From the NCBI RefSeq assembly GCF_043950625.1, contig NZ_CP171007.1: a stretch of DNA of 32,000 nt. One strand, written 5' to 3'. The stretch comes from Alkanindiges sp. WGS2144. Its GTDB lineage: Bacteria; Pseudomonadota; Gammaproteobacteria; Pseudomonadales; Moraxellaceae. Under the pieces are notes generated by a model. That model saw only the letters and a list, made by a program, of their open reading frames with translations, searched no databases and was not told the origin of the DNA. The translations under genes were made by a program, and so were the position numbers. Of the stretch, positions 5,874 through 27,354 are shown in pieces (the stretch's first letter is position 1; every line of letters starts with the position of its first letter).

Positions 5874-5886
5874 AACGACCCTCAAC

Positions 5887-6922: not shown

Positions 6923-7005
6923 ATATTCTCTGGCTAAAGCAGATATAATAATTTGAATTGCGCCACCACAATAGTAGTTTTTATTTTTCATTTTGGGGAA
7001 ATCTT

Positions 7006-10055: not shown

Positions 10056-10161
10056 AGTTAATGCTGCTACCAGCTTTTCTTAAAGCCTTATACCCCCCGA
10101 TGCTGAATAACTGTATCAGGGGGTTTTAATGATTAAAACTGTCTATTTATCAAGCAAAGGC

Positions 10162-11169
<1,008 letters not shown>

Positions 11170-11288
11170 TCATAGCGCAATCCCATAAAAAAATTATGGG
11201 ATTTATTAAAATATTTTTATCTGGCAGGCGGAACGCGAAATTGTCCAGTTAGAAGTTTAACGGGCTTATGGAATAGGTCTTTTTGACT

Positions 11289-11903
11289 TTAAAACAAATG
11301 CCGCATACGCTGCTGCTTGGTCAGCAAATACGCCTCATTAAATGGGTTTTTCCCCACCTTTAAGGGTACACGCTCTACCACTTCAATACCTAGTTGTTGC
11401 AGGGCTTCCACCTTGGCCGGATTATTAGTCACTAGTTTTACCTGTTGTATACCCAGATGATCCAGCATGATTTTGGTCATCTCATAAGTACGGGCATCGG
11501 CAGGCAGGTTAAGCAGTAAATTGGCATCCACCGTGTCGTGGCCCTGATCCTGTAAGGCATAAGCGCGGATTTTATTGGGCAGGCCAATCCCGCGTCCTTC
11601 CTGACGTAAGTACAATAAAGCGCCCTTTCCTGCCTGTTCTATCATTTGCAGAGTGGTGTTTAACTGTGGACCACAATCACAGCGCAGGGAGGCAAATGCA
11701 TCACCGGTCAAACATTCAGAATGCAGACGCACCAGTACCGGTTCAGCTTGCAGCCCGGCCTGACCATGCAACAAACCCTTGGATAATGCCACATGCTCCT
11801 CTCCAGTTTGCGGATCTTCGAATACAGAAATATCAAATTCACCATGCGCAGTAGGTAATTTAGAGGAGGCAACAAACGAAATGGGCACTGCATTTTCTTC
11901 CAC
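11289..11903 (-). CDS. ribA: GTP cyclohydrolase II
   Basis: [24 protein letters not shown] (zinc site), [28 protein letters not shown] and LVTNNPAKV match RibA. The start codon is GTG. Confidence 0.93.
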
Positions 11904-12202
11904 AAAAATTGAAGATATCTAGTATAACGAAAAATAACAGGCATAAACTAAAGCTAAAACGAATGGTTAAGTTTAAATATATGCCTTGCACTAGTGTTCC
12001 ATTGACAAAATCTGCTAAATTAACAGACGATTAATGAGCATTATCGACAACAATACTAGGACATCTATGCAGCAAATGGTACGATTTGCGGCTGATGTGG
12101 CCGCCCCGCTTGGCTTGTTGAGCTTAGACGGAAGTCGCCGATTTTAGTCAATCGACATTTTAACCCAGCTAAGGAATGCCAGGCTAGCAGGTATACCGCC
12201 AC

Positions 12203-14134
12203 ATGATGTATGACACAATCCCAACAGCCCGACCTTTTACGCCGCTTCTGGATAGTATTGATCAGCCACAGCAGTTGAAAATCCTGGGTTTAACCGAGCT
12301 TAAGCAACTGGCTGACGAGCTGCGTCTATACCTGCTCTATGCAGCGGGTCAAAGCGGCGGGCATTTTGGTGCCAATCTTGGCGTGGTTGAGCTTACCATT
12401 GCCCTGCATTATGCGCTGGATACCCCCAAAGACCGGCTGGTATGGGACGTGGGCCATCAAGCCTATGCACACAAAATATTAACAGGTCGCCGCGAAGCAC
12501 TTACAACAATTCGCAGTAAAAACGGCCTGGCAGCTTTTCCCTCACGTGAAGAATCCGAATATGACACCTTTGGCGTAGGCCATTCCTCTACCGCCATTTC
12601 TGCTGCTTTGGGCATGGCGCTGGCCTTGCGTTACCAGCAGGATCATCGTCGTGTGGCTTGTGTGGTAGGTGATGGCGCCATGACCGCCGGAATGGCCTTT
12701 GAAGCCATGAATGATGCAGTGCAGCATCAGGCTGATATACTGGTAGTACTCAATGATAATGATATGTCAATTTCTGGTAGCGTGGGTGGGTTTGCCAAAC
12801 ACTTAGGCGCCTTATGGAAAAAAGGCCAGTCGGTATACTTGAGCGATACTGGCGAAGTATCTATCCAGCCACACCCGAACTGGACGTTTAATCCACGGGT
12901 CAATAGCAACGATGCCGCCGAAAACCTCTTTTCTGCTATCGGTTTTGAATATTTTGGCCCGGTTGATGGTCATAACCTGCAAGAGCTAACCCGCATTCTG
13001 ACCCTGCTTAAAGACCGTAAAGGCCCGCGCCTGCTGCATGTGTATACCACGAAGGGCAAAGGCTTTGCACCGGCTGAGCTTGATCCCATTGGCTACCATG
13101 CCATCAGCAAGCTTAGCAGTAATGTGATTAATTCAATTAAGGCGGTTGATAAAGATACCAAGCCCCAGAAATATTCCGATGTATTTGGCCAATTCCTGTG
13201 CGATCAGGCGGCCCTGGATGAGCGCCTGCTCGCCATCACTCCCGCCATGAGTGAAGGCTCTGGCATGGTACAATTTGCCAGCCAGTATCCAGAACGCTTT
13301 TTTGATGTTGCGATTGCTGAGCAGCATGCCGTTACACTGGCAGCGGGTATGGCCTGTGAAGGCTTAAAGCCTGTTGTTGCCATTTATTCCACTTTTTTGC
13401 AGCGCGGTTATGACCAGCTGATTCATGATGTTGCCCTGCAAAATCTGGATGTCACCTTTGGCATTGACCGGGCAGGTCTGGTTGGTGAAGATGGCCCAAC
13501 CCATGCCGGTGCTTATGATTATGCCTATATGCGCACGGTGCCCAATTTAATCCTGATGGCGCCCAAGGATGAAAATGAATGCCGCCACATGCTGCATACT
13601 GCTTATCAATATCCGGGGCCGGCAGCAGTGCGTTACCCGCGTGGGACTGGACCGGGCAGCCTGATTGAGCAGGATTTTATTAGCCTGGAGATTGGTAAAG
13701 CAGAAGTATTGGCACATCTAAATCCAGAGACTAACTACACCGTTGCGCTACTGGCATTTGGCAGTATGGTCATGCCGACCCTGCAAGCTGCTGAACAGCT
13801 GGCTCATCATCAGTTGGGCGTCATCGTGGTCAACATGCGCTTTATCAAGCCACTGGATCAGCGCCTGCTTAAACAACTGGCCGATCAGGTACAAGGTTTT
13901 GTCACCCTTGAAGAACACGCCGTGATGGGCGGTGCAGGGAGTGCCGTGCTGGAAAGCCTGCAAGCACAGGGGATTTTAAAACCCGTGTTAAATCTTGGCC
14001 TTCCGGACTCATTTTTGCATCAGGCCACACATCCGCAAATGCTGATAGACTGCGGACTGGATCAGAGTGGGATTTACCATTCCGTTAATGCTTTTGTGCA
14101 AAAGCTTATGTCTGGTGAAGGGCTCAACTCTTAA
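12203..14134 (+). CDS. dxs: 1-deoxy-D-xylulose-5-phosphate synthase
   Basis: 643-aa ORF with [19 protein letters not shown], the TPP motif [15 protein letters not shown] and [14 protein letters not shown]..., all typical of DXS. Confidence 0.96.
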
Positions 14135-14290
14135 ATACTGGAAGCAGCATAGTGCTCACAGCCAGACAATGTAGCCAGTTTACAAGTTACTGCGCAATAT
14201 CTCACACGATGAAAGAGTTTTTTGCTAAAATATCCGCCTAGACTTGTTCTATATTCTTTGACGTCTTTAATTAATGCAAATGGGTGAATC

Positions 14291-15121
14291 ATGGAACCTA
14301 TGGTGGTGATGGCTGCGCGTGCGGCACAAACAGTAGGCAGTGAAATTTTAAAAGCACATCAGAACCGTCATAAGCTGGACCTGCAAATTGAGAGCAAGGG
14401 TATCGATGGTCCAGTGACTCGCCTTGATCGTTATATTGAAGAACTCACCATTGCCACCTTAAAAAAAAGCTATCCCAAACACAGTTTTCTGGGTGAAGAA
14501 TTTGGTCTACAAGAAGGCCAGGGCAACGATGCTGACTGGTGCTGGGTGATTGACCCTCTGGATGGCACCGTCAACTTTATTCAGGGCTATCCGCATTTTT
14601 GTGTATCCATTGCTGTGCAACATAAAGGGATTACCCAGCATGGTGTGATTTATGACCCGGTTAAAGATGAGCTATTTTCGGCCAGCCGCGGTCGTGGCGC
14701 TGTTTTAAATCAACGCCGTATCCGCATGACGCCAAAAGACAACCTGAAAGACAGCTTCTTAGCCGTTGGCTATCCATTTGCAGCCATGCGTAATGGCGAA
14801 GTGGTTTCCTATGCGGAGCAGCATTTTAATACTCTGCTTGCCATTACCAAGGCTGGCGCGTCTTTCCGCCGTGGTGGCTCAGCTGCGCTGGATCTGGCCT
14901 ATGTGGCTGCTGGTCGTTTTGATGGTTATTTTGAGCTTGGTTTAAAGCCGTGGGATCTGGCTGCCGGTGAACTCATTGTCAAAGAAGCAGGTGGCACGGT
15001 AGTCGATGCCAAAGGTGGCAGTGACTGCTTTAACAATGGTCAAATTGTTGCTACTTCCATGAAATTACTCAAGCCGCTCATGCAAGCCATTGTACCGGCC
15101 TGGGGCGAGGCGATTCGCTAA
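14291..15121 (+). CDS. suhB: Inositol monophosphatase family protein (SuhB-like)
   Basis: IMPase motifs are present: WVIDPLDGTVNF, GSAALDLAYVAAGRFDGY and WDLAAG. Confidence 0.88.
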   Translation: MEPMVVMAARAAQTVGSEILKAHQNRHKLDLQIESKGIDGPVTRLDRYIEELTIATLKKSYPKHSFLGEEFGLQEGQGNDADWCWVIDPLDGTVNFIQGYPHFCVSIAVQHKGITQHGVIYDPVKDELFSASRGRGAVLNQRRIRMTPKDNLKDSFLAVGYPFAAMRNGEVVSYAEQHFNTLLAITKAGASFRRGGSAALDLAYVAAGRFDGYFELGLKPWDLAAGELIVKEAGGTVVDAKGGSDCFNNGQIVATSMKLLKPLMQAIVPAWGEAIR

Positions 15122-15136
15122 TTCACATCTATCCTG

Positions 15137-15166
15137 CAAAAAGCAGTCTACTACAGGCTGCTTTTT
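15137..15166 (+). terminator. Rho-independent terminator after suhB-like gene
   Basis: The stem AAAAAGCAG ... CTGCTTTTT is followed by T residues. Confidence 0.6.
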
Positions 15167-15252
15167 GAGTATCTGGCATTCAAAATGAGCGACCTTGTCC
15201 GCCCAATTTTTAACGATAACAACTGGCCGCTGCTCAGGTGGAAAATAGCTTA

Positions 15253-16022
15253 ATGTGGAAAATAACCAGAATTTTTATTTTGCTGATTATTCTGGCGGTG
15301 GTGATTATCCAGTCCTTGCAGGACAAAGCTGATTTAACCTGGAAAAACAGCTTTTATGTGGCGGTGTATCCTGTGAATGCCGCTCAAAGTCCACAAGTTG
15401 AGCAATATATTCAAACGCTGCAAGCAAGCGATTTTAGAGCGATGCGGCTGAGTTTTTAAATAGTGAAGCCAAACGCTATGGCCTGCCGCTATACCGGCCA
15501 ATTAATATTGTGCTGGGTAAGCCGGTTTCTACTTTACCCCCTGCCCCACCAGTAAATGGCGATATTTTTAAGGTGATGCTGTGGAGTTTAAAACTGCGTT
15601 ATTTTGCCTGGAAGCATGAGCAGGTATTTAGCATTCATCCAAAGATTCAATTGTATTTATTGTACTTTGATCCCAAACAGCATCCGGCACTTAGCCACTC
15701 TACCGCACTACAAAAAGGCCGCGTGGGACGAATAAACCTGTTTGGAAATACTGAATATAACCAACAAAATCTGGTCATTTTAAGCCATGAGTTACTGTAT
15801 ACACTGGGTGCTAGCGATAAATATAATTTTGGCGATAATATGCCTATTTTCCCTGATGGCTTTGCTTATCCACAACAACAACCATTTTATCCACAAGCCA
15901 AGGCGGAACTGATGGGTGGACGTATTCCCTTAACTGATAGCAAAGCCATTATTCCGCGTGACCTAAGCCAGACTGTAATTGGAGAAAAGACAGCACGCGA
16001 GATTGGCTGGGTGAAGGATTAA
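15253..16022 (+). pseudogene. Conserved-looking membrane-anchored protein split by a frameshift (two ORFs, 15238-15459 and 15510-16022)
   Basis: The upstream frame (MWKITRIFILLIILAVVIIQ..., one N-terminal TM) stops at 15457-15459. The downstream frame is already open from 15438 (SDAAEFLNSEAKRYGLPLYRPINIVLGKP...) but has no ATG of its own until far downstream. Frames shift from 1 to 0, consistent with a 1-nt deletion or a sequencing error near 15430-15459. Confidence 0.7.
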
Positions 16023-16038
16023 GTTAACGCATAGTAGC

Positions 16039-16068
16039 TTGCATTTAATACGAATAAATAGCTAGAAT
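16039..16068 (+). promoter_or_regulatory. Candidate sigma70 promoter for the PAAR operon
   Basis: TTGCAT (16039-16044), an 18-nt spacer, then TAGAAT (16063-16068), located about 40 nt upstream of the PAAR ATG. This is a sequence match only. Confidence 0.35.
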
Positions 16069-16109
16069 TCATGGCTCTTGCAGGTATGCAATAAAAATAA
16101 GGTATAAAA

Positions 16110-16673
16110 ATGAGTGTGGCTTATGCAATTGTCGGCAGTCCAACCACAGGCGGCGGGCAGATTACTACAGGGGATTCTTTATTTATCATCGATGGAACAC
16201 CCATAGCTTGTGTAGGAGACAGAGCCACTTGTCCGTTACATCAGTCTGATGTCATCATCGTTACGGGTGATCCCGCATGTATTATCAATGGAAAGGCTGC
16301 CGCAAGAGTCGGTGACAGCTTATCCTGCGGCTGCAAAATATTGCCCAAGCAAGTTCGAGTAGTAGGAGATAATTTTCCTAGCAAAAGCCCAGTGGCTTCG
16401 CCTGCACCTTCGTCTTCTCACCTGAACAGTAATTTTAATTCCAATTCTGGCACTGATGAGCAACAGTTACATGGTCTTAAAATTCAATTTAAAGACGAGT
16501 TAAGCAAACAGCCAGTGCCTTATTTATATTACAAATTAAAAAAACCTGATGGTCACTTTGTAGAAGGACTAACCGATGAGCAAGGCTATACAGAAGAAAT
16601 TCAGGGCGGTTATGAAGCCGAAGAAATAGAAATTATTAATTTAGACTTAGATAAACCTTATACGCAGGAATAA
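16110..16673 (+). CDS. PAAR-domain protein (T6SS spike-tip) with Ser/Pro/Asn-rich linker and about 65-aa beta-rich C-terminal extension
   Basis: Residues 1-88 show the PAAR pattern: GGGQITTG..., IDGTPIACVGDRATCP, INGKAAARVGDSLSCG. The linker reads FPSKSPVASPAPSSSHLNSNFNSNSG. The C-terminal segment LKIQFKDELSKQPVPYLYYKLKKPDGHFVEGLTDEQGYTEEI resembles transthyretin/CarboxypepD_reg-like beta-sandwich repeats. That last assignment rests on pattern recognition only. Confidence 0.85.
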   Translation: MSVAYAIVGSPTTGGGQITTGDSLFIIDGTPIACVGDRATCPLHQSDVIIVTGDPACIINGKAAARVGDSLSCGCKILPKQVRVVGDNFPSKSPVASPAPSSSHLNSNFNSNSGTDEQQLHGLKIQFKDELSKQPVPYLYYKLKKPDGHFVEGLTDEQGYTEEIQGGYEAEEIEIINLDLDKPYTQE

Positions 16674-16679
16674 TAAATT

Positions 16680-17000
16680 ATGGCTACCAGTCGCGTTGAT
16701 TATCAACAACTTGAAGAGCAAGCATATCCACAAGAGATAGAAACTTGCGAGTTTACCGAGCCACTTTGCAATAACTATATTAAAGTGAGAAATATTAAAG
16801 TCATTCAGCCTTATAATTTTTTTATGTCACCTGAACAATGGGCTGAAGTAGAAAGAATTAATGGCCTGGAATTTCGCCTTGCCTTAAAGTTTGGTTTAGA
16901 AAATGACATGCGGTTTTATAGTGACGCGTTAACCAACCGCCTGTCCTTTCATACCATGATGTATATTAAATTTGCTGAATATGTGCGAAAAACTCTTTAA
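16680..17000 (+). CDS. Hypothetical acidic 106-aa protein tightly linked to PAAR gene (candidate cargo-effector N-terminal part or cognate immunity)
   Basis: The ATG lies 6 nt after the PAAR stop codon. There is no signal peptide and I recognise no motif. The ORF sits in AT-rich island DNA. Confidence 0.55.
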   Translation: MATSRVDYQQLEEQAYPQEIETCEFTEPLCNNYIKVRNIKVIQPYNFFMSPEQWAEVERINGLEFRLALKFGLENDMRFYSDALTNRLSFHTMMYIKFAEYVRKTL

Positions 17001-17082
17001 ATGAAGTTAAAAAACTAGTTGCAGAGTTTCAGTCCGCAGCTTTTAAAGCGCGAACTACGAGTGTTTTTCAGCAGCCAAGATA

Positions 17083-17262
17083 ATGACAGTGAAAGATTTA
17101 GTAGAAAAATCTTATCTTGCTCCAAGAGCTGCGCTTGACATTCATCAACTCACGGTAAATAAAGGCCCTATCACTATCAATAGAACGTTGTATAAGAAAG
17201 TTTTTAAACGAGATTATGACGTTGATATAGTTAATTTTATAAAGGTGAGGGGGTTTATTTAG
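17083..17262 (+). CDS. Short 59-aa ORF (MTVKDLVEKSYLAPRAALDIHQL...); possibly a fragment of a decayed larger gene
   Basis: Translated by hand because it is below the track cutoff. Its ATG overlaps the TAA of the preceding 34-codon open frame (TAATG at 17081-17085). I recognise no homology. Confidence 0.3.
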   Translation: MTVKDLVEKSYLAPRAALDIHQLTVNKGPITINRTLYKKVFKRDYDVDIVNFIKVRGFI

Positions 17263-17567
17263 GCGATCCTGACAATGTAATTTATGAAGAATTGAGAATG
17301 TAAAATATGAAATTATTTGTAATTGTTTTCTTATGCCTTTCTTCCTCTATAGCCTGTGCAAAAAAGGATGATAATAACTCGGAGATTAAACAAGCGCTTG
17401 ATACAAGCATGCAATTATTAAAACTTGATGAACCTATTTATATAGAAATTGAAGCTGATAAGATAGATAAATTACATCATGCTATTTTTCTAAGTACAGT
17501 GATTAAATTAGGTGCAATTAAAGATTAGACCTCTTGCGAAAGTAAAAACTGCCTCAATATAGATTTC

Positions 17568-17966
17568 ATGAAATATCAGAAATTAAACCGTTTTTCAGAT
17601 TCTGAATTCAAGCGCTTGGTTGGTGTACCTCGACCAGTTTTTAGTGAAATGGTCGAAGTTTTAAAAGAAGCAGAATCACTTAAAAAGAAATCTGGGCGTC
17701 CTCATACTTTAGTTATAGAGGATCAATTATTATTAACACTCAATTACTTACGGAATTACAGCACTCAATTGGAATTGGCTGCAAATTACCATATCGCTGA
17801 AAGTAATGTGAATCGAACTATTAAAAAGGTTGAAGATGCATTAATGAAATCAAGGCGTTTTACCCTGCCAAAACGAAGCATTACAACAGCAGACGAACAA
17901 TTTAACTGGGTCATTATTGATGCTACAGAATGTTCAATAGAACGCCCGAAAAAAAAATCAGAGTAA
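17568..17966 (+). CDS. IS transposase OrfA (HTH part)
   Basis: 132-aa ORF that ends just after the A9 run (17949-17957). The sequence up to IIDATECSIERPKK is the N-terminal and first catalytic-Asp region of DDE_Tnp_4-type transposases. Confidence 0.85.
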   Translation: MKYQKLNRFSDSEFKRLVGVPRPVFSEMVEVLKEAESLKKKSGRPHTLVIEDQLLLTLNYLRNYSTQLELAANYHIAESNVNRTIKKVEDALMKSRRFTLPKRSITTADEQFNWVIIDATECSIERPKKKSE

Positions 17967-18390
17967 GTTCTACAGTGGTAAAAAGAAGAAACATACGCTA
18001 AAAGCCCAAGTGATCTATCATCCGAAGAGTAAACAAATCATAGGAGTAGATATATCGTCTGGCAGTCAGCATGATATTAAATTGGCAAGAAAAACAGTAA
18101 AAAAATTCAAACATTTTGAATATGTTATGACCGATTTAGGGTACTATGGGTTAGAGCAAGATGGCTTTAAATTATTGATGCCAATAAAGAAAAAGAAGAA
18201 TTTACCCTTATTTGATGTTGAGAAAAAGTACAATAAAATGATTGGAAAAATACGAGTTGTAATCGAACATATTAACAGTCAATTGAAAAGATTTAGAATA
18301 CTAAGTGAACGCTATCGAAATCGACGGAAAAGATTCGGTTTACGCATTAACTTAATCGCTGCACTGGTAAACCGGATGAACTTGCAATAA
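17941..18390 (+). CDS. IS transposase OrfB (DDE part, +1 frame, no own ATG)
   Basis: The frame is open from 17941: NARKKNQSKFYSGKKKKHTLKAQVIYHP...GSQHD...TDLGY...IEHINSQLKRFRIL. The FYSGKKKxHTLK motif normally follows ERPKK directly in one polypeptide. An A8 run instead of A9 would give a continuous protein of about 273 aa. Confidence 0.8.
   Translation, partial: NARKKNQSKFYSGKKKKHTLKAQVIYHPKSKQIIGVDISSGSQHDIKLARKTVKKFKHFEYVMTDLGYYGLEQDGFKLLMPIKKKKNLPLFDVEKKYNKMIGKIRVVIEHINSQLKRFRILSERYRNRRKRFGLRINLIAALVNRMNLQ
17949..17957 (+). promoter_or_regulatory. A9 homopolymer at the OrfA/OrfB junction (candidate +1 recoding or transcriptional-slippage site)
   Basis: CCG AAA AAA AAA TCA. The same A9 run is present in copy 2 (19625-19633). 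Confidence 0.5.
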
Positions 18391-18665
18391 CGACTTTCGC
18401 AAGAGGTCTAATATACAAATATTTTAGGCACTACATTAAATGACTCTAACTATTTTGACTTATGGGAAACAAATACTTTATGTTTAGCAGCAAACTACGC
18501 TATAAATTATGCTTATACCGACAAAACAGTTAATAATATAAAATCTATCTACTGGTTAGAAAAGCAGCAAGTCGACTGGATAAAAACGCTTAGAGATAAA
18601 AGTTTTCGTAAAACACTAGAGCAAACAAACTGTCTAGATAAAATATCTAAGCAAGCCTTAAAAAA

Positions 18666-19142
18666 ATGAAATATCTTATTGCTTTTATGTGCTCTCTTTT
18701 CCTCTCTGCCTGTACACTAATGAACAATCACTCTTCTGATAAATTAGAAGTAGGAAGCTCCTTAAAAATTACCAAAAGTATTTTAAAGAATGAAAGTGAT
18801 CTTTACTATTATATAGGCAATAAACATATTAACCAAACCAATGACTTAATTTATAAGAAAATTTTGTTCAAGTTGGGTGTTTTGAATGATTTCGCAACAT
18901 ATTTAAAAACAGACTTAACGAGCTTAGAACTAAATTCTATGCGAGAAATAAATGCTTATTGCCTTGCTACAGACTTTGTGTTGAATTACAAATCACAAAT
19001 TTTACCGCCTAACGAAATGTATCAACCTTTATTAATTGAATTGAAAAAGAATCAACTTATCTGGATTGATAGACTTAGCGAGAATAAACAAGTAGAGATT
19101 AATTATTCCTGTTTAGAGAAACTTAAATTGCAGACTACGTAA
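18666..19142 (+). CDS. Lipoprotein (paralog 2), candidate periplasmic immunity protein
   Basis: 158-aa ORF with signal peptide and lipobox MKYLIAFMCSLFLSAC. Its ATG overlaps the stop of paralog 1 (ATGA at 18666-18669). It shares the colinear motifs KLGxxxD, NxxCLAxxxxxNY, WIxxL and CLxK with paralog 1. Confidence 0.8.
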   Translation: MKYLIAFMCSLFLSACTLMNNHSSDKLEVGSSLKITKSILKNESDLYYYIGNKHINQTNDLIYKKILFKLGVLNDFATYLKTDLTSLELNSMREINAYCLATDFVLNYKSQILPPNEMYQPLLIELKKNQLIWIDRLSENKQVEINYSCLEKLKLQTT

Positions 19143-19243
19143 AGTCTAATGATTATAATTCTAGGGTTGACGAATATAATAAAACTTATCATAAATAAGA
19201 TTAGACCTCTTGCGAAAGTAAAAACTGCCTCAATATAGATTTC

Positions 19244-19642
19244 ATGAAATATCAGAAATTAAACCGTTTTTCAGATTCTGAATTCAAGCGCTTGGTTGGT
19301 GTACCTCGACCAGTTTTTAGTGAAATGGTCGAAGTTTTAAAAGAAGCAGAATCACTTAAAAAGAAATCTGGGCGTCCTCATACTTTAGTTATAGAGGATC
19401 AATTATTATTAACACTCAATTACTTACGGAATTACAGCACTCAATTGGAATTGGCTGCAAATTACCATATCGCTGAAAGTAATGTGAATCGAACTATTAA
19501 AAAGGTTGAAGATGCATTAATGAAATCAAGACGTTTTACCCTGCCAAAACGAAGCATTACAACAGCAGACGAACAATTTAACTGGGTCATTATTGATGCT
19601 ACAGAATGTTCAATAGAACGCCCGAAAAAAAAATCAGAGTAA
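19244..19642 (+). CDS. IS transposase OrfA, copy 2
   Basis: The protein is identical to 17568-17966. Confidence 0.85.
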   Translation: MKYQKLNRFSDSEFKRLVGVPRPVFSEMVEVLKEAESLKKKSGRPHTLVIEDQLLLTLNYLRNYSTQLELAANYHIAESNVNRTIKKVEDALMKSRRFTLPKRSITTADEQFNWVIIDATECSIERPKKKSE

Positions 19643-19736
19643 GTTCTACAGTGGTAAAAAGAAGAAACATACTGAATAGCCACCGATTTTGTAGACACCT
19701 TTTAGTTAGATAAAATGGCTAATTAACGAGGTGCTT

Positions 19737-20015
19737 ATGAGCAGTAAACGATACCCTGAAGAATTCAAAATTGAAGCAGTAAAACAAGTCACTGAGAAAG
19801 GTCATAGTGTGGCTGAAGTTGCTACACGTTTAGGAACCACTACACATAGTCTGTATGCTTGGATCAAACGTTATGATCCACAGCAGCCCAAGACAACAGA
19901 ATCTAGTGATCCAACTACAGAATTAGCGAAATTAAAAAAAGAGCTGCAAAGGGTCACTGAAGAAAGGGACATATTAAAAAAGGCCGCGGTGTACTTCGCA
20001 AGCCAGTCCAAATGA
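19737..20015 (+). CDS. IS3-family transposase OrfA (HTH)
   Basis: MSSKRYPEEFKIEAVKQVTEKGHSVAEVATRLGTTTHSLYAWIKRY...LKKELQRVTEERDILKKAAVYFA is the typical IS3 OrfA HTH plus leucine zipper. GAGG lies upstream of ATG 19737. Confidence 0.9.
   Translation: MSSKRYPEEFKIEAVKQVTEKGHSVAEVATRLGTTTHSLYAWIKRYDPQQPKTTESSDPTTELAKLKKELQRVTEERDILKKAAVYFASQSK
19976..19982 (+). promoter_or_regulatory. A_AAA_AAG programmed -1 frameshift heptamer of the IS3 element
   Basis: TTA AAA AAG is in the orfA frame. The -1 frame is open from here into orfB (KKGRGVLRKPVQMRYAF...). Confidence 0.7.
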
Positions 20016-20884
20016 GGTACGCCTTTATTCGGGACAACCAACATATATGGTCTGTTCGTCGTTTATGTTCAACGTTAGATGTTCATCACAGTGGTTATTA
20101 CGCCTGGTTAAAGAAACCTACCAGTATAACTGCGAGGAAGCGGCAACAGCTTTCAGGATTAATTAAACAGTTCTGGTTGGAATCTGGCGGAGTCTACGGT
20201 TATCGCAAGATTCATTGTGATTTGAAAGACGTTGGCGAAAGTTGCGGTATCAATCGAGTACATCGACTCATGAAGGCGAATGGTCTCAAGTCACAGCGTG
20301 GCTATCGCAAACCTAGAGCTAATGTTAGTACTCCATCGATTGTGGCTCGAAATACTTTAGACAGACAGTTTAACCCCACCCAGCCCAACCAGTTGTGGGT
20401 GACTGACATCACTTATATTCGCACTCATGAAGGATGGCTGTATCTTGCAGTAGTAATCGACCTATTCTCACGGCTAGTCGTTGGCTGGTCTATGAAGTCG
20501 AGAATCACAACAGATCTGGTTTTAGATGCTCTACTGATGGCTTTGTGGCGAAGAAGCCCAAAGAACAAAGTCCTGATTCATTCTGATCAAGGTAGCCAAT
20601 ACACCAGTCATGAATGGCAGACATTTCTCAAGCATCACAACCTTGAAAGCAGTATGAGCCGGCGTGGAAACTGCCATGATAATGCTGTTGCTGAGAGCTT
20701 CTTTCAGCTGTTAAAGCGAGAGAGGATCAAGAAGAAAATCTATGTGACAAGAACTGAAGCAAGGTCGGATATCTTTGAATATATAGAGATGTTCTATAAC
20801 TCAAAACGCAGACATGGTTCCAATGGTCAGCGTTCTCCATTAGATTATGAAAAGGCCCATCAAAAGATGGTTATGTGTGTCTAG
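20012..20884 (+). CDS. IS3-family transposase OrfB (DDE integrase core)
   Basis: 290-aa ORF in the -1 frame relative to orfA. It carries the rve-type motifs WVTDITYIRT, LYLAVVIDLFSR, HSDQGSQYTS and CHDNAVAESFF. Confidence 0.92.
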   Translation: MRYAFIRDNQHIWSVRRLCSTLDVHHSGYYAWLKKPTSITARKRQQLSGLIKQFWLESGGVYGYRKIHCDLKDVGESCGINRVHRLMKANGLKSQRGYRKPRANVSTPSIVARNTLDRQFNPTQPNQLWVTDITYIRTHEGWLYLAVVIDLFSRLVVGWSMKSRITTDLVLDALLMALWRRSPKNKVLIHSDQGSQYTSHEWQTFLKHHNLESSMSRRGNCHDNAVAESFFQLLKRERIKKKIYVTRTEARSDIFEYIEMFYNSKRRHGSNGQRSPLDYEKAHQKMVMCV

Positions 20885-20903
20885 AATTTTGGTGGCTATT
20901 CAT

Positions 20904-21299
20904 ACGCTAAAAGCCCAAGTGATCTATCATCCGAAGAGCAAACAAATCATAGGAGTAGATATATCGTCTGGCAGTCAGCATGATATTAAATTGGCAAGAA
21001 AAACAGTAAAAAAATTCAAACATTTTGAATATGTTATGACCGATTTAGGGTACTATGGGTTAGAGCAAGATGGCTTTAAATTATTGATGCCAATAAAGAA
21101 AAAGAAGAATTTACCCTTATTTGATGTTGAGAAAAAGTACAATAAAATGATTGGAAAAATACGAGTTGTAATCGAACATATTAACAGTCAATTGAAAAGA
21201 TTTAGAATACTAAGTGAACGCTATCGAAATCGACGGAAAAGATTCGGTTTACGCATTAACTTAATCGCTGCACTGGTAAACCGGATGAACTTGCAATAA
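20904..21299 (+). pseudogene. 3' portion of IS copy-2 OrfB, separated from its 5' part by the IS3 insertion
   Basis: It has the same reading frame and protein as 17995-18390. The track ORF 20847-21299 is a read-through from the IS3 end into this fragment. Confidence 0.85.
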
Positions 21300-21539
21300 C
21301 GACTTTCGCAAGAGGTCTAATCTTTATAAAAAATTTGATTTTCAAGCTTACGGCGTAGAACCAAAAGCATTAAAAAACAACAATGAATATACTCATGAAA
21401 TTTTAATGAAGCTTTTTTTATTATAGGGCTTTCTTATAAAAGCCTCTTTGCCTTAGATATTAGCAAACTATTAAACTGGCATGATGTGCCTCAATAACCC
21501 ACCACGCCAGCTTTCTAGCTTTAATATCTATTAAAAACT

Positions 21540-24245
21540 CTAACCCTCAACCCATTTGCCATCCTTAAACACCAGTGTCCATTTGGTCGGCTTGCCATCT
21601 TTTTCTGAAGAAATGTACTGGGCGCTATTTTTGCGGCTCCAGCGCAGGATAGTGGGATTACCTTCGGGATCTGTATCAGGTGCCTTAAGCAAATACTGAT
21701 ATTTTGGTGCCAGTTGATCTTTTACCGTACGCAACTCACTAATGGCAGGGGTACGGGTTTCACGCACCTTGGGAAATTTGCTGGCCGCCAAAAATAAACC
21801 AGCAGCACCATCACGCAATACAAAATGGTCATCAAATTTCTTTGAGCGCAAATGTGGCATATCAATCGGGTCTTCGCGTGGTGGAGCAGCCTCCCCGCTT
21901 TTTAGCACTTTACGCGTATTATCGCAGCTATTGCAGGCAAAATAAGGTCCAAAACGGCCAGTTTTTAACTGCATTTCACCATTACACTTGTCACAGGGAA
22001 TGGTTGGGCCATCATAACCCTTGATTTTAAAAGTCCCTTCCTCAACCAGATAGCCTTCACAATCCGGGTTGTTGCCGCACACATGCAGTTTACGGCCACC
22101 ATCAATAAAATAGCTATCCATGGCAGTATCACATTTCGGGCAGCGCTTCTTGGCCATTAAATCAGCAGTTTCTGCACTGTCATCCGCATCTGCCAGCGCC
22201 GCCAGCGACTCAACCGGTGTCAGGTTCAAAGTGCCTTTGCAGCGCTCCTTGGGCGGCAGGTTGTAGCCTGAACAACCCAGAAACACTCCGGTTGAACCGG
22301 TACGAATCTGCATGGCACGGTCGCATTCCTTGCAGTGCACATCGGACACCTCTACCGGCTGATTACGGCGCATACCGCCTTCTTGTGCCTTGGCATGCTC
22401 CAGCTTGATTTTAAAGTCACTATAAAAGCTGTCCAGTAGGTTTTTCCAGTCGCGCTCGCCGGTAGCTACCTTATCCAGTTGTCCTTCCAGATCAGCGGTA
22501 AAGGTGTAATCCATCAGGTTACTAAAATTTTCATTGAGACGATCAGTCACGATATCGCCCATTTTCTCGGCATACAGGCGCTTATTTTCCAGTTTTACAT
22601 AGCCGCGATCCTGAATGGTGGAGATAATTGCAGCATAAGTTGACGGTCGGCCAATGCCTTTTTTCTCAAGTTCTTTGACCAGTGAGGCTTCAGTATAACG
22701 CGCTGGCGGTTTGGTAAAATGCTGGCTAGGATCAAGTTTCAGCAGTTTTAATTGCTCACCCACTTTGACGCTAGGCAACAGGACGTCATCATCCTGCTTG
22801 TTGGCGCCGCGCACCCGGGTAAAGCCATCAAATACCAGCGTGCGACCACGTGCCTTTAGCTCAATACCATTGGCTTCAACCGTAATGGTGGAAGATAGGT
22901 ACTCTGCTGGGGTCATCTGGCAGGATACAAACTGACGCCAGATCAAGTCATACAGACGCTGTGCATCGCGTTCCATGGTGGTGAGCTGGCTACCAGTTAA
23001 ACCCACACTGGATGGACGAATGGCCTCATGCGCTTCTTGTGCGCCTGCCTTGTTGCCATAGCGGTTTGGTTTGGCAGGCAGGTATTTTGACCCGTACTCA
23101 TGCTCAATATGATGGCGCACCATATTGACTGCATCGTCGCTTAAGTAGGTCGAGTCAGTACGCATATAGGTAATAAACCCCCCTTCATACAAGCGTTGCG
23201 CCAGCGTCATGGTTTTTTTCACTGAAAAACCAAGCCGTGTGCTGGCTGCCTGTTGCAAGGTCGAGGTGATATACGGTGCGCTTGGATTGGTTTTGGTGGG
23301 TTTGTCTTCACGTGCTGTAATGGTGTACTTGGCGTCTTTAAGCACGGCCAGCACGGCATCAGCTTGTGCCTTGTTTTGCAGCTTTAAGGTCTTACCATTT
23401 TGCTTGATGGCTTCCAGGCGAATTTCATCGTTTTGTTTGGCTTTTTGAGAGAGTGTATCGGCAAAAATTTGCCAGTATTCTTCTGGCACAAAAGCACGAA
23501 TTTCACGCTCACGCTCCACTACTAGCTTGACGGCCACCGACTGCACGCGGCCAGCCGATAAGCCACGGGCAATTTTTTCCCACAATAAGGGCGATACCAT
23601 AAAGCCCACCACCCGGTCTAAAAAGCGACGGGCCTGCTGCGCATTGACTTTATCTGTATCCAAACGTCCTGGAGTTTTAAAAGCTTCCTGAATGGCATTT
23701 TTGGTAATTTCATTGAACACCACGCGGCGATAGCGCTCAGGTTTTCCACCAATGACTTGCTGCAAGTGCCAGGCAATGGCTTCCCCTTCCCTGTCCAAAT
23801 CCGTTGCCAGATAGACTTCATCCACCTGTTTGGCCAGCTTTTTTAGCTCGCTAACCACATTTTCCTTGCCGGGCAACACTTCATAATGTGCCTGCCAGCC
23901 ATGCTCAGGGTCAACGCCCATGCGGTTAACCAGTGCCTGCTGGGCTTTTGCTTCTTTCTCTTCGGCTGTCAGCTTGGCCTTGGCTGGTGCTTTGGCAGCC
24001 GTTGATTTGCCACTGCCACTGGTTGGCAGGTCGCGTACGTGGCCTACACTGGATTTGACAATATAATCCTTGCCCAGATACTTATTAATGGTTTTGGCTT
24101 TGGCAGGTGACTCTACAATAACCAGTGCCCGCGCCTTTTTACCAGTAGTGGTCGTCTGGTCAGCATCTGGCAGAATTGCAGGATCTGCCGTCTTGCGGCC
24201 TGCTTTGGCAGATGTTTTAATGTTAGAGCGAGGCGCTGTTGACAT
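21540..24245 (-). CDS. topA: DNA topoisomerase I
   Basis: 901-aa ORF with the Toprim start [31 protein letters not shown], the active-site region ITYMRTDS and multiple C-terminal Cys4 zinc-ribbon repeats. Confidence 0.96.
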
Positions 24246-24277
24246 GGTCTTTCAGTATTCTCAAAAAATTAAAAGGT

Positions 24278-24745
24278 TCAGGTTTTTAGATTTGCAGCCT
24301 GTTGTGCAAGTGACATAAGGATGGTTTTCATTTTTTCAAGGTGCGACCCATGCAGGTCGCTATCCTCATCCCAATACATACCTACACAATTGGCCTGCAT
24401 TTCTAGCGCGTATATTCCCTTTAAATCGATGACTTGTCCATCAAATTGCGTATTTCCCTGCCTGACACGCAGCTTTTGCTGCTCAACCAGCGCCTGCATA
24501 AGGGGCAACCGGGCGTCAGACAGTAAAACACTATAAAAAGCCACCATGCCGCCGGGCTTCCCCGAAGGGGAGATATGCTCAATCCAATCAGGTGCAGCAA
24601 TCAGGCGCGGATGCAGGTTCATCTTGCGTGCCCGATCACGCATCTGCCCCAGCGCCTTCTCGCGTGGGCTAACCCGTAAGCCCAAAATGGAACCCAGAAT
24701 AAAAATAATGATAAAACCTATTACCCAGTAAGCAGTTGTGCTCAT
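24278..24745 (-). CDS. Hypothetical membrane-anchored protein (one N-terminal TM)
   Basis: 155-aa ORF located 32 bp upstream of topA on the same strand. The N-terminus YWVIGFIIIFILGSILGL is hydrophobic. I recognise no motif. Confidence 0.6.
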   Translation of the reverse strand: MSTTAYWVIGFIIIFILGSILGLRVSPREKALGQMRDRARKMNLHPRLIAAPDWIEHISPSGKPGGMVAFYSVLLSDARLPLMQALVEQQKLRVRQGNTQFDGQVIDLKGIYALEMQANCVGMYWDEDSDLHGSHLEKMKTILMSLAQQAANLKT

Positions 24746-24944
24746 CAGCAGTCTCTAATGACATGTTATATTCTCTTTAGCTTGCCTAGGCCGGTGAATA
24801 AAGACAAGTTTTTAGTTTATTTATGGCATCTGTGTAAAAACAAACCCATGATAAATTAATCTCTATAACGAAACGTTTAGTGCCGAGCATTCAGGTTTCT
24901 GCCTATCACGCGCTTTTGCCCAGCAACACCTCCTCAGGTAGGCT

Positions 24945-25778
24945 ATGATAAAGCGATCTTTTATTACTTATTGTGAAGCTCTCATGTCACTTGCCTGCCT
25001 TGTCTCACCGCATCAACACCTGAATATTACCCTCCACGATAATGGTATTCTGGAACTGGTACTTAACCGGCCAGAACGCAAAAATGCCCTATTTGGAGAC
25101 TTTTATCTGGCGCTGACACAGGCACTCAACGAAGCCGACTTGTCAGATGCGGTGCGCGTGGTTCTTTTGCGTGGTGAGAAGGATTTTTGTGCAGGCAATG
25201 ATTTACAAGACTTTATTGATCATCCACCTACCACTCCTGATGCTCCGGCGTTTTTATTATTGCGTGCTGCTGCCAGTTTAACCAAGCCTTTGGTAGTAGC
25301 AGTTCAAGGGGTAGCCATTGGCATTGGCTCGACTATTTTACTGCATGCTGATCTGGTATATAGCGATAGTCATGCGCGTTTTCAGTTGCCGTTTTTAAAT
25401 CTGGGATTAGTGCCAGAAGGCGGTTCTACCTTGTTGCTGCCGCAGCGTGCCGGTTACTTAAAAGCAGCCGAATTGCTACTGCTGGGTGAACCATTTAATG
25501 CACAGACTGCCCTGCTGGCTGGTCTGGTCACGCAAGTTATAGAAGAACAGGATACGTATCAATATGCCCATGCCAAGGCTGCCCAGGTAGCCCGGCTACC
25601 ATTAGCTACAGTGAAGCTGACCAAACAGCTTTTGCGCGGCGGGAATAGTGACGTTATAGCCCGTATTAATGAAGAAGGCACACATTTTATTGAACGTGCC
25701 CAGTCAAAAGCCTTACATGAGGCGGTCGCAGCATTTAAGGAAAAACGGATGCCAGATTTTAAGCAGTTTGAAGACTAA
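24945..25778 (+). CDS. Enoyl-CoA hydratase/isomerase (crotonase) family protein
   Basis: Crotonase pattern LNRPERKNAL ... FCAGNDL ... KPLVVAVQGVAIGIGSTILLHADL. An alternative start at ATG 24984 (MSLACLV...) is plausible. Confidence 0.85.
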   Translation: MIKRSFITYCEALMSLACLVSPHQHLNITLHDNGILELVLNRPERKNALFGDFYLALTQALNEADLSDAVRVVLLRGEKDFCAGNDLQDFIDHPPTTPDAPAFLLLRAAASLTKPLVVAVQGVAIGIGSTILLHADLVYSDSHARFQLPFLNLGLVPEGGSTLLLPQRAGYLKAAELLLLGEPFNAQTALLAGLVTQVIEEQDTYQYAHAKAAQVARLPLATVKLTKQLLRGGNSDVIARINEEGTHFIERAQSKALHEAVAAFKEKRMPDFKQFED

Positions 25779-25821
25779 AGCGACCTTGCTGAGTATTTTT
25801 TACGCTTATATTAGTCTGTAG

Positions 25822-25855
25822 GCACGGTAGAAGCAGATGACTTATCGCTACCGTG
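25822..25855. terminator. Hairpin between convergent genes
   Basis: A 9-bp perfect inverted repeat GCACGGTAG ... CTACCGTGC is followed by TTTA. Confidence 0.5.
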
Positions 25856-25890
25856 CTTTAATTAACCATTCACTTATTCAAAGACTTGGA

Positions 25891-26328
25891 TTATTTAGGG
25901 CGAATGATCATATTCGTAGCGGTGGCATGGGCGTACAGTTTACCCTCTTCATCGCGCAAATAGCCTTCAGAAATCACCAGATTACGGCTTGTATTAATCA
26001 CCTTACCTTCGGCAATCAGCTTTTTATTAAAAGGAATAGGACGACAGATTTTTATATTTAAATCCGTGGTGCCGTAACCTTCGCCTGCCGCCAGCATGGT
26101 ATGCGCCGCGCAACCGGTTACCGAGTCAAGCACTGTGGCAGCAAAACCACCATGCACGCCACCTAAAGGATTAGTATGGCGTTCATCCGCGATGGCACTC
26201 ACTACCACCCGGCCTTGCGATGCTTCTATTGGTTTCATGGGCATGGTTTTGGCAATACCCGGCTCTGGAAACAGCCCTGCACCAAACGCCTGCATAATTT
26301 CAAGACCAGTCATTTCAAATGGATTCAT
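25891..26328 (-). CDS. PaaI-family (hotdog fold) thioesterase
   Basis: The motif NPLGGVHGGFAATVLDSVTGCA is the PaaI/4HBT signature. GGAG lies 7 nt upstream of the ATG. Confidence 0.85.
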   Translation of the reverse strand: MNPFEMTGLEIMQAFGAGLFPEPGIAKTMPMKPIEASQGRVVVSAIADERHTNPLGGVHGGFAATVLDSVTGCAAHTMLAAGEGYGTTDLNIKICRPIPFNKKLIAEGKVINTSRNLVISEGYLRDEEGKLYAHATATNMIIRPK

Positions 26329-26357
26329 GTTTTTACTCCGTAATATAAGAGGCTGAT

Positions 26358-27212
26358 TTAGCTGACTAATGGGCTAGCAGGCTGGATACCAATTTTGGCC
26401 TTGGTTTTAGTCACCAGCTCATCGATTTGAGTATCATTAGGATGAAAATCGAAGCGGTAGTACTCCAGCATTTTTGGGGTTAACTTTTTAAGATTGGTGC
26501 CCATAAATCTGGCGTATTTCGCCCAGGATTTTATATTCGACAGTTGCTTGTCCTGCGCCATTAACCTGACCTGATAGACATAGCTCAGTGCCATAATCAC
26601 CGTAAAGCCAAAGGTAAACAACGCAACTCGTGGTATATAGGCATCAAGCCCTTTACCGTACAGATATTCATATAAATCAAATGCCAGTGCTTTATGCTCG
26701 GTTTCCTCAATACTATGCCACAGCCACAGGTTACGAATGGTGGTATCGGTCATTAGCGTGTTGGTGGTTCTCATCATTTCTTCTACCAGTACAGCGGTAT
26801 AATGTTCCACCCCAACAGTTACCAGCAAATTCCATTTTTGAGGAAAAATCCGCTCAATGGTTTTCATAACAACACCAGTGGCTTTTTCCAGTGCCTCCAG
26901 GTCTAAACCATGTTGCTGGGCACTGAGGTGAAAAGCGTGATGCTCTTTGGAATGCATGGCTTCCTGACCAATAAACGCCCCAATATCACGGTCTAGCGCT
27001 GCATCATCTTTAGCCAGATGGCGTACTGCACGAACAGAACGCACAAAAAACGCCTCGCCTTCTGGAAATAAAGTCGATAAGCCAGTGAAAAAATGGGTCA
27101 GTGCCGGATCATGGTCACACCAGTATTTTGGCAGGTCATTAAATTGATAATCCATACGACGCACAGGAAATGAAGCAGACGGTCTCGGTTTGGTTTTTAG
27201 CTTGGTTGACAT
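26358..27212 (-). CDS. Predicted metal-dependent hydrolase (PF10118-like)
   Basis: 284-aa ORF with the His-rich segments FIGQEAMHSKEHHAFH and WHSIEETEHKA. The family assignment is from memory of this architecture. Confidence 0.7.
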   Translation of the reverse strand: MSTKLKTKPRPSASFPVRRMDYQFNDLPKYWCDHDPALTHFFTGLSTLFPEGEAFFVRSVRAVRHLAKDDAALDRDIGAFIGQEAMHSKEHHAFHLSAQQHGLDLEALEKATGVVMKTIERIFPQKWNLLVTVGVEHYTAVLVEEMMRTTNTLMTDTTIRNLWLWHSIEETEHKALAFDLYEYLYGKGLDAYIPRVALFTFGFTVIMALSYVYQVRLMAQDKQLSNIKSWAKYARFMGTNLKKLTPKMLEYYRFDFHPNDTQIDELVTKTKAKIGIQPASPLVS

Positions 27213-27354
27213 GGGAAACCCTCATTTATCTACTAAGTTCCATTTTGAAACCGACTAAAAACAACATAGCTGTGCTAAAATATTTTGTCAATAAGACCTA
27301 CCATCATTGGGCGAAGATTGTCCTGAAATGATGATTGTTTGCCTATAAGGATAA

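Follow-up and report, generated by a model that had tools for sequence, protein, structure and literature searches.

A degenerate PAAR-linked gene cassette in Alkanindiges sp. WGS2144, probably a disarmed effector-immunity locus of the type VI secretion system

What does a lone PAAR gene, set among the housekeeping genes of a bacterium, serve to deliver, and does it still deliver it? The question is raised by the 32,000-nt stretch of contig NZ_CP171007.1 of Alkanindiges sp. WGS2144 (assembly GCF_043950625.1) that was analysed here, called the window in the following, and more precisely by its AT-rich island at positions 16030-21539. An earlier note, made from the letters of the window, had proposed that the island is an orphan PAAR locus of a type VI secretion system (T6SS) with an effector/immunity module in which lipoproteins provide immunity. 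Sequence comparison makes it likely that the island is what remains of a mobile cassette of three genes, met mainly in Acinetobacter, namely a T6SS PAAR cargo effector-immunity locus that would have been disarmed. The conservation of the gene triad in other genomes and two loci in which it lies within a T6SS cluster speak for the initial proposal, but the copy found in the window is a disarmed remnant in which the candidate toxin gene is a pseudogene and one of the lipoprotein genes is split by an insertion sequence (IS). The genes of the cassette are listed below.

16110-16673, + strand: intact PAAR gene, 187 aa, with a PF05488 domain
16680-17304, + strand: pseudogene of the candidate cargo effector (the "231-aa family"), read through frames 0, 2, 1 and 0
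17307-17523, + strand: N-terminal part of lip1 (lipoprotein paralog 1), with a signal peptide and the lipobox …SSSIAC, cut by IS5 copy 1
18413-18669, + strand: C-terminal part of lip1, whose TGA stop codon overlaps the ATG of lip2 (ATGA)
18666-19142, + strand: lip2 (lipoprotein paralog 2), intact, 158 aa, lipobox LSAC, a candidate orphan immunity gene

In its present state the cassette thus has an intact PAAR gene, an intact lip2, a dead candidate toxin gene and a lip1 gene split by an ISAba27-like IS. A dead toxin gene next to an intact lip2 suggests that the strain is disarmed at this locus and probably still protected against one toxin variant, the one found in relatives similar to the intact locus L022 (see below).

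The remains of the cassette

The 106-aa open reading frame (ORF) that starts 6 nt after the PAAR stop codon, as the earlier note had observed, and the short frames that follow it, joined by TAATG overlaps, had been taken for separate genes. All of them are frame-shifted pieces of one gene spanning 16680-17304, the 106-aa ORF (16680-17000) and a 59-aa ORF (17083-17262) among them, and their operon-like packing is an artefact of the frameshifts. Nucleotide alignment with the intact 201-aa ortholog of L022 (7959-8564) places three 1-nt deletions near positions 16988, 17065 and 17232. Comparison of Acinetobacter 231-aa proteins with the window by tblastn gave matches in three consecutive frames over 16719-17244, and the three-frame translation returns to the original frame for the C-terminal motif GDPxNV, which is followed by the stop codon at 17302-17304. 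The repaired translation is 208 aa long. The status of ORFan that could have been given to the 106-aa ORF, which matched only itself in a word-indexed homology search, was refuted through the genes adjoining PAAR homologs.

The same breaks are found in a Logan assembly (L001, run SRR30887707) that shows 0 mismatches to window positions 6110-17550 over 11,441 nt, all three deletion sites included, and that ends at the IS in the manner of a short-read assembly. A metagenomic relative (L002), whose PAAR protein is 87% identical to that of the window, carries a different lesion in the candidate effector gene, a TAG at codon 53. These observations indicate that the breaks are real decay and not assembly noise.

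The PAAR gene had been correctly recognised at 16110-16673: its product matches PF05488 over residues 8-78 (E = 1.9e-21; 76.5 bits for a cut-off of 27) and the same motif profile was matched in all 40 homologs that were aligned. The domain is followed by a disordered, low-complexity Ser/Pro/Asn linker (residues 81-120) and by an all-beta part (residues ~121-176); no second domain was found in this C-terminal extension with Pfam or NCBIfam. By its 187 aa and its unannotated C-terminal extension of ~100 aa the protein falls within the "PAAR-2a" class (170-190 aa). Its 130 homologs, mostly 170-200 aa long, are from Acinetobacter. Both the PAAR protein and the 106-aa ORF product have 100% identical counterparts among the proteins of Alkanindiges sp. 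WGS2144. The AlphaFold2 (AF2) model of the protein has an overall predicted local distance difference test score (pLDDT) of 55.8, with beta strands over residues 121-176 modelled at pLDDT 72-81. In Foldseek searches the top matches of its N-terminal part were the solved PAAR cones 4jiw_D and 4jiv_D, at probability 1.00 with weak E-values of 0.016-0.024 for a model of pLDDT 55.8. The C-terminal part matched transthyretin (TTR), 5-hydroxyisourate hydrolase and 6ski_A at probabilities of 0.8-0.97 with weak E-values of 0.5-2. The match to 6ski_A, the TTR domain of a VgrG bound to Tle1, covers residues ~121-176 (probability 0.97, target TM-score 0.70, E ~0.8). Weak, sub-threshold matches to SpaA/prealbumin-like Pfam families were also obtained for 9 of the 40 homologs (best E = 0.012). 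On the basis of these models the C-terminal domain of ~60 aa is probably a transthyretin-like adaptor. A class of PAAR proteins with transthyretin-like extensions was reportedly described by Shneider et al. in 2013.

Intact relatives of the broken gene code for proteins of 201-236 aa. Their N-terminal ~110 residues have about 30 invariant positions, including C31, C38, TEPLCN, PYNF, G78-E80-D82 and F96-H97-T98, and no signal peptide and no hydrophobic or membrane segment was found in the family. A profile search of 1.84 billion representative proteins returned only 25 representative clusters, none of them beyond the effector family. Comparison by profile and structure with families of T6SS toxins already described (among them Tae, Tge, Tle, Tpe1 and nucleases; Pfam, NCBIfam, PDB) gave no match to it. 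The earlier note had held that its proposal would fail if the ORFs belonged to a known family foreign to the T6SS; the effector family has no match in Pfam, NCBIfam, PDB or PADLOC.

The tandem of lipoprotein paralogs reported for this region does exist, with two paralogs joined by an ATGA overlap at 18666-18669, but the first one is split by IS5 copy 1. Excision of 17524-18412 in silico yields a single in-frame lip1 ORF of 157 aa, which aligns over its whole length with the lipoprotein family and has both conserved Cys residues. A 163-aa lipoprotein of Acinetobacter matches both lipoprotein genes of the window in tblastn and they all belong to the same family. Every lipoprotein paralog has a signal peptide, the lipobox Cys and two further invariant Cys residues. 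The lipoprotein is the fastest-diverging part of the cassette, with a mean pairwise identity of 40% compared to 60-77% for the other parts. For lip2, no Pfam, NCBIfam, PHROG or PADLOC match was found.

Intact versions of the cassette and their distribution

The interval between dxs-suhB and topA in related genomes had been pointed to by the earlier note as the place where an intact version of the island might be found, and this is what L022 provides. L022 belongs to the metagenome-assembled genome "Proteobacteria bacterium OH_PBrB_6" and was retrieved by a scan of the GTDB species genomes with the effector-family alignment. Its gene order agrees with that of the window from hemF/ribA/dxs onwards, through suhB and the membrane-protein gene to a point past topA, and the DNA is 77-86% identical. 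Where the window has its island, flanked by the membrane-protein gene and topA, L022 has an intact cassette free of IS, in an island of 33.9% G+C. Its PAAR protein has 87% amino acid identity to the one of the window and its effector-family gene (7959-8564) is an intact frame of 201 aa. The lipoprotein genes that follow are lipA, lipB (44% identical to window lip1) and one lip fragment. The product of lip2 is 96% identical to the one of lipA (97% at the nucleotide level), which lies directly 3′ of the intact effector gene.

Homology between the window and L022 is continuous from the membrane-protein gene to position 17115, within the effector gene, is then lost, and is found again at 18663, at the start of lip2. 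The two loci therefore differ by a block that comprises the C-terminal part of the effector and the next lipoprotein. Identity drops to 61% in the C-terminal part of the effector and to 28% in the adjacent lipoprotein, from 85-89% in the PAAR protein and 93% in the N-terminal part of the effector. The synonymous divergence (dS) between the window and L022 is also uneven:

dxs, suhB and topA: dS 1.3-1.7
PAAR gene: dS 0.43
effector gene, N-terminal part: dS 0.25
lip2 / lipA: dS 0.057

Values for the island lie far below those of the core genes, which argues that the cassette was exchanged between the two lineages after their split, at the same chromosomal site. The stretches compared are 16110-19203 of the window and 7389-9122 of L022, and the breakpoints lie near 17115 and 18663. 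The ratio of non-synonymous to synonymous divergence (dN/dS) relative to L022 is 0.145 for the PAAR gene and 0.11 for the 102 codons of the N-terminal part of the effector gene. These ratios point to selection acting on the PAAR gene and to an only recent death of the effector gene. In a co-variation test of 14 loci the effector C-terminus and the lipoprotein co-vary, as do all parts of the cassette (rho 0.70-0.87). A scan of metagenomes for an empty site with the upstream membrane protein returned one contig of 1.8 kb, which was uninformative.

The scan of the GTDB species genomes yielded 12 loci, 11 of them in Acinetobacter species. The order is the same in all 12, a PAAR gene with extension, an effector-family gene and one to three lipoprotein genes, encoded by one strand and abutting or overlapping; the effector gene is in each case linked directly to the PAAR gene and the immunity candidate lies immediately downstream. 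Eleven loci are intact and the other one (L021) is a decayed copy. The order is also found in L003-L010, L023 and L026. Acinetobacter PAAR homologs of like architecture (46-51% identical, 180-191 aa) have a 231-aa gene and then a 163-aa gene behind them.

Two of these loci lie next to T6SS genes. In Acinetobacter sp. WU_MDCI_Axc73 the triad comes directly after tssG…tssM-tagF-tagN(OmpA) and before ileS, and in A. ihumii it is found after the same OmpA-type gene and likewise before ileS. Judged by gene order, the triad fills in both species the slot of the main T6SS cluster that is usually held by a short PAAR gene (the layout of this cluster is given in PMC6838775). In the A. baumannii group the triads occupy either integrase/umuDC islands or the lysis end of prophages, where they are encoded by the other strand than the endolysin, and accessory genes of prophages and islands accumulate at these sites. 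In L003-L005 (5266-9499) and L007-L010 (2555-9836) the triad stands beside variable, defence-like cargo (genes for PIN-domain and RelA/SpoT-domain proteins, an AAA_15/AAA_21 ATPase and Bro-N/Arc) or beside integrase-SRAP-umuDC. One A. baumannii-complex protein cluster of the 231-aa family occurs on 552 contigs, one of the strains being AB0057. PHROG has entries for both the PAAR class and the 231-aa family (phrog_5348, phrog_24557) and gives their function as unknown. Among 50,697 phage records two hold a relative, both of them contigs of one metagenome-derived entry, "Acinetobacter phage MD-2021a".

PAAR genes of the same class are also followed by other gene pairs. In L024 (4518-5653) and L025 (4515-5650) these code for a HExxH protein of 225 aa and a protein of 151 aa that starts with a hydrophobic leader and is similar to DUF7480 below the Pfam cut-off, and in L027 (4520-5627) for a 262-aa protein and a 109-aa protein with a hydrophobic N-terminal stretch. 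Neither the 225-aa HExxH cargo nor the 262-aa one has a Pfam match. The presence of unrelated cargo pairs behind PAAR proteins of one class suggests that this class is a general carrier for swappable cargo cassettes. An N-terminal delivery motif common to PAAR-2a cargos was considered and rejected, the HExxH and 262-aa cargos being unrelated to the 231-aa family.

Proposed function and its alternatives

From these sequences we infer T6SS delivery, toxicity, a periplasmic site of action and an immunity function, arranged as follows. An intact cassette codes for a PAAR spike-tip protein with a C-terminal, probably transthyretin-like extension, then for a predicted all-helical protein of 201-236 aa that belongs to an uncharacterised family and has neither signal peptide nor membrane segment, and closes with one to three lipoprotein genes. 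The PAAR protein would cap the VgrG spike of a T6SS encoded elsewhere while its extension would hold the ~200-aa protein as a non-covalent cargo. Once delivered, this protein would exert its toxicity in the periplasm of the target and the lipoprotein would neutralise it in that of the producer. Extra lipoprotein copies would be orphan immunity genes directed against the toxin variants of relatives. A site of action in the periplasm appears most likely because the immunity candidate is a lipoprotein, both partners have paired invariant Cys residues and the putative toxin is leaderless. We lean slightly towards the broader view that the 201-236-aa proteins are an unrecognised T6SS toxin family of a new, mostly helical fold, which would act in the periplasm, be loaded via the TTR-like extension of PAAR-2a proteins and have spread in Acinetobacter, including epidemic A. 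baumannii lineages such as AB0057, largely as prophage and island cargo.

Several points weigh against this reading. No family-level match speaks for toxicity of the 201-236-aa protein, and the term toxin designates a candidate here. The effector family has no Pfam match even at E ≤ 1 and no sequence match in the PDB at E ≤ 10, and its fragments in the window gave no match in an NCBIfam search. Its AF2 model is mostly helical, has a mediocre pLDDT of 65 and leaves the most conserved segment (residues 28-48) unmodelled, and a Foldseek search of the PDB with this model found no match (best E = 2.2). Foldseek matches of the family to the ClyA/SmhA pore toxins were non-significant noise and were not used. 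The TTR assignment of the PAAR extension depends in turn on a low-confidence model (pLDDT 55.8) and on matches with E > 0.01. The labels "cognate" for lip1 and "orphan" for lip2 would follow from gene order solely. The statistics of co-divergence are confounded by shared phylogeny and the test that gave rho values of 0.70-0.87 does not discriminate. Finally, many copies of the triad lie in prophages or integrase islands and have PHROG entries, which makes a phage-related role possible.

The 201-236-aa protein might instead assist this PAAR class as an accessory or adaptor, with a role in stabilising or loading the tip, and the lipoproteins might serve envelope structure or regulation. Its N-terminal ~110 residues are indeed so conserved (~30 invariant) that they resemble an interaction module more than a fast-evolving toxin, no catalytic family or fold is recognised in it, and Tpe1 of A. 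baylyi, the sole PAAR-linked cargo studied in the genus, was not toxic to E. coli according to a 2026 review. We nevertheless regard this explanation as unlikely: the cassette offers no other toxin candidate at any locus and the protein matches no known adaptor family of Pfam, while arrays of one to three fast-diverging lipoproteins and the joint replacement of the effector C-terminus and the lipoprotein are hallmarks of toxin/immunity pairs. The gene has moreover decayed in two related lineages that both keep the PAAR gene intact, and in this genome also a lipoprotein, which fits the loss of a weapon. A further alternative would make the cassette a phage function, either the tip of a tail spike or a moron with which a prophage excludes superinfecting phages or modifies the envelope, of which the window would hold a prophage-end relic. 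PAAR folds do cap phage spikes (Foldseek matches to T4 gp5.4, phiKZ and P1 were obtained), the triads of the A. baumannii group lie inside integrase-bounded islands or adjoin endolysin and tail genes, and to the families phrog_5348 and phrog_24557 can be added the relative on a contig deposited as "Acinetobacter phage MD-2021a". However, in L003-L005 the triad runs counter to the endolysin gene and to the long gene run read as late/tail genes (of which only the endolysin has a Pfam match), in L007-L010 it adjoins integrase and umuDC, and its position in prophages is that of cargo or a moron, not of a baseplate module. Triads free of phage genes are found between core genes (window, L022) and in the PAAR slot of the main T6SS cluster (L018, L016), only 2 of the 50,697 phage records have a relative and there are no PADLOC defence matches, all of which renders a phage function quite improbable.

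It could also be argued that the effector gene of the window is functional, its frame changes being homopolymer sequencing errors or being bypassed by ribosomal frameshifting. At least two of the three lesions do fall within short runs of one base (A5, T5), where long-read assemblies typically err, and the N-terminal 102 codons have a dN/dS of 0.11 relative to L022. Yet the independent Logan assembly SRR30887707 is identical at 11,441 positions including all three sites, the neighbouring membrane-protein gene is frameshifted, lip1 is cut by an IS, an independent nonsense codon is found in L002, and three separate recoding events in one gene of 625 nt would be without precedent. We consider a functional gene extremely improbable. 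The reading of the island as a disarmed PAAR effector-immunity cassette is the one retained in the following.

Surroundings of the cassette and comparison with known systems

The abrupt change of composition described by the earlier note is real: the island has a G+C content of 35.7% compared to 47.6% at 1-16029 and 47.8% at 21540-32000 (~47.7% in the flanks), and a recount of the two 60-nt lines quoted as examples gave the same 12 (line 17281) and 26 (line 15001) G+C. Insertion-sequence DNA makes up 3,011 of the 5,510 bp of the island (55%). The IS segments are the following.

17524-18412, + strand: IS5-family, ISAba27-like copy 1, 889 bp, with 20-nt perfect terminal inverted repeats ATTAGACCTCTTGCGAAAGT
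19200-19672, + strand: IS5-family (ISAba27-like) copy 2, left part
19673-20902, + strand: IS3-family element of 1,230 bp nested in IS5 copy 2, with orfA/orfB, inverted repeats and a 3-bp duplication
20903-21321, + strand: IS5 copy 2, right part, which begins with the duplicated TAC

Four ORFs of the island are thus insertion-sequence genes, and the statement that no product other than the PAAR protein belongs to a recognised family was wrong for them. The transposase of IS5 copy 1 is encoded in two frames (132 aa and 126 aa) around an A8 run. Matches to the IS5 family were to DDE_Tnp_1 and HTH_Tnp_4 (PF01609, PF13613) and to NF033581. The IS5 copies have perfect inverted repeats of 20-23 nt and are 95-99% (up to 99.2%) identical in DNA sequence to copies on 56 Acinetobacter plasmids, some of them annotated as ISAba27. 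Once the nested IS is removed, copy 2 (19200-21321) differs from copy 1 at two positions. No recognisable target-site duplication was found at the flanks of either IS5 copy; AAG stands on the left of both and CTT on the right of copy 2. Inside copy 2, the IS3-family element comprises orfA (19731-20015) and orfB (20012-20884), which overlap by ATGA, and is bounded by 26-nt inverted repeats (TGAATAGCC…/…GGCTATTCA). Its target duplication TAC is found at 19670-19672 and 20903-20905, the junctions being defined by comparison with the uninterrupted IS5 copy 1. It matches HTH_Tnp_1 (PF01527), rve (PF00665) and NF033516 (E = 4e-106) and is 99.8% identical to plasmid copies in A. lwoffii and Acinetobacter sp. 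Tol 5.

These identities indicate that IS have moved recently between Acinetobacter and Alkanindiges. Terminal repeats and transposase domains agree with those of ISAba27 and the IS3-family element of Acinetobacter plasmids; the differences are the host, which is Alkanindiges here, and the inactivation of IS5 copy 2 by the nested IS3-family element. The Acinetobacter plasmids that bear these IS include those of a permafrost isolate of A. lwoffii. The two directly oriented ISAba27-like copies enclose lip2 and the 3′ part of lip1 in the manner of a composite transposon, and this arrangement could make the putative orphan immunity gene mobile.

The DNA that borders the cassette and the IS holds three more features.

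16023-16109, + strand: intergenic leader upstream from the PAAR gene, with TTGCAT-N18-TAGAAT at 16039-16068
15253-16022: conserved membrane-protein gene on the left of the island, a pseudogene in the window and an intact gene of 255 aa in L022
21322-21539, no strand assigned: AT-rich remnant (30% G+C) that separates IS5 copy 2 from the stop codon of topA, with an ORF tail and a hairpin

The leader of 87 nt has only 2-3 differences to its counterparts in L022 (7302-7388) and L002 (379-465), in which TTGCAT-N18-TAGAAT is fully conserved. Its identity of ~98%, compared to ~86% in the adjacent coding DNA, points to some constraint or to a recent exchange acting on the leader, which could be a regulatory element, a 5′ untranslated region or a recombination tract. 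The promoter candidate proposed for this motif fares less well: the motif is present at 16039-16068 in a conserved leader, but it does not pass a consensus promoter scan, its −35 hexamer fitting at 3 of 6 positions. The same scan found 16 promoter-like sites in the region compared to 18.9 expected by chance from shuffled sequence.

The membrane-protein gene has a 2-nt insertion near 15441 that splits it into pieces of 73 aa and 170 aa and that is also present in the independent Logan assembly. Together with the IS load, this pseudogene hints at a wider gene decay in the 2.38-Mb genome. At the other end of the island, the remnant contains an ORF tail (…FDFQAYGVEPKALKNNNEYTHEILMKLFLL*) and, at 21426-21445, a hairpin that resembles a terminator. 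L022 lacks this segment, which may be the leftover of a gene removed by an IS. The window genes outside the island are housekeeping genes, among them those for a purU-like product, an aldehyde dehydrogenase, a K+/H+ exchanger and an OmpA-family protein, hemF, ribA, dxs, suhB and topA, and those for an enoyl-CoA hydratase, an ABC-F protein and a lipid A acyltransferase. In L022, dxs and suhB are separated by a gene for a zinc-type alcohol dehydrogenase (4279-5310), which the window lacks. A search of the whole 32 kb found no tss, hcp or vgrG gene, as the earlier note had stated, and a PADLOC search for defence systems gave no match.

PAAR proteins with an N-terminal PAAR domain and an unannotated extension (170-190 aa) were defined as a class by Repizo et al. 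2019 (PMC6838775), who found some members next to the toxins Tpe1, Tae4 and VRR-Nuc and several neighbourhoods without an assigned toxin. The same work reports that Acinetobacter species lacking a T6SS mostly have no PAAR genes and that the genus Alkanindiges has homologs of four core proteins of T6SS-1 (TssB, TssC, TssK and TssL). Lewis et al. 2019 (PMC6833914) surveyed 97 genomes of A. baumannii and found no PAAR gene next to a predicted effector, and they describe PAAR proteins of 172-280 aa with extensions lacking an identifiable domain. A 2026 review of the Acinetobacter T6SS names Tpe1 as the only PAAR-linked effector and states that in standard competition experiments it was not toxic to E. 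coli. Our literature searches found no description of the 231-aa family or of its lipoproteins and no characterised homolog.

The locus of the window is a non-functional relic, and its value is that it leads to the intact form of the cassette, which is uncharacterised and common in Acinetobacter. Should the 231-aa family prove to be a T6SS toxin, it would form a new effector/immunity pair and a class that was missed in the clinically important A. baumannii, the unannotated PAAR extensions would gain a concrete role, and prophages would ferry T6SS ammunition in Acinetobacter, re-arming or disarming the T6SS of their host. The window, L022 and L002 would then be a small natural series of weapon loss in which the toxin goes first and the PAAR tip is kept in all three, one immunity gene being also kept in the window genome.

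The closest known systems are the PAAR-2a islands of Acinetobacter, such as the PAAR-2/Tpe1 locus of A. baylyi ADP1 (Ringel 2017 via PMC6838775; Repizo et al. 2019). Its PAAR protein has the same architecture and length, with 45% identity, and is followed in the same order by a leaderless protein of ~200 aa and a small protein with an N-terminal hydrophobic leader. Both loci are orphan, away from the main T6SS cluster. The pair of a 225-aa HExxH protein and a 151-aa protein seen in A. baylyi and A. baumannii fits the published PAAR-2/Tpe1 locus. In contrast to this 225-aa cargo of the A. baylyi type, the 231-aa family has no HExxH motif and gave no hidden Markov model match to the cargo of L024/L025. 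The immunity candidates described here are lipoproteins of a different family, often arrayed, and the copy of the window is a pseudogenised, IS-ridden remnant.

A second, possible likeness concerns loading. In the Tle1 system of enteroaggregative E. coli (PDB 6sjl, 6ski) a TTR domain of VgrG, a small beta-sandwich on a spike component, is the proposed non-covalent dock of the effector. The putative docking domain modelled here would be carried by PAAR instead of VgrG, and the cargo does not belong to the lipase family. The tandem of immunity-like paralogs downstream of an effector recalls the orphan immunity arrays, and the displacement of effector C-termini and immunity genes, at T6SS loci such as the V. 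cholerae aux clusters and those vgrG loci of A. baumannii in which non-cognate immunity genes occur (PMC6833914). As in these arrays, lip2 corresponds to a gene that in a relative is partnered with another effector variant, and a recombination breakpoint lies inside the effector gene; unlike in them, the effector is dead, the array is interrupted by IS and it stands behind a PAAR gene, not vgrG. The locus therefore appears to be of a known kind, a PAAR-island effector/immunity cassette with orphan immunity genes that was eroded by IS, whose effector and immunity families appear to be undescribed.

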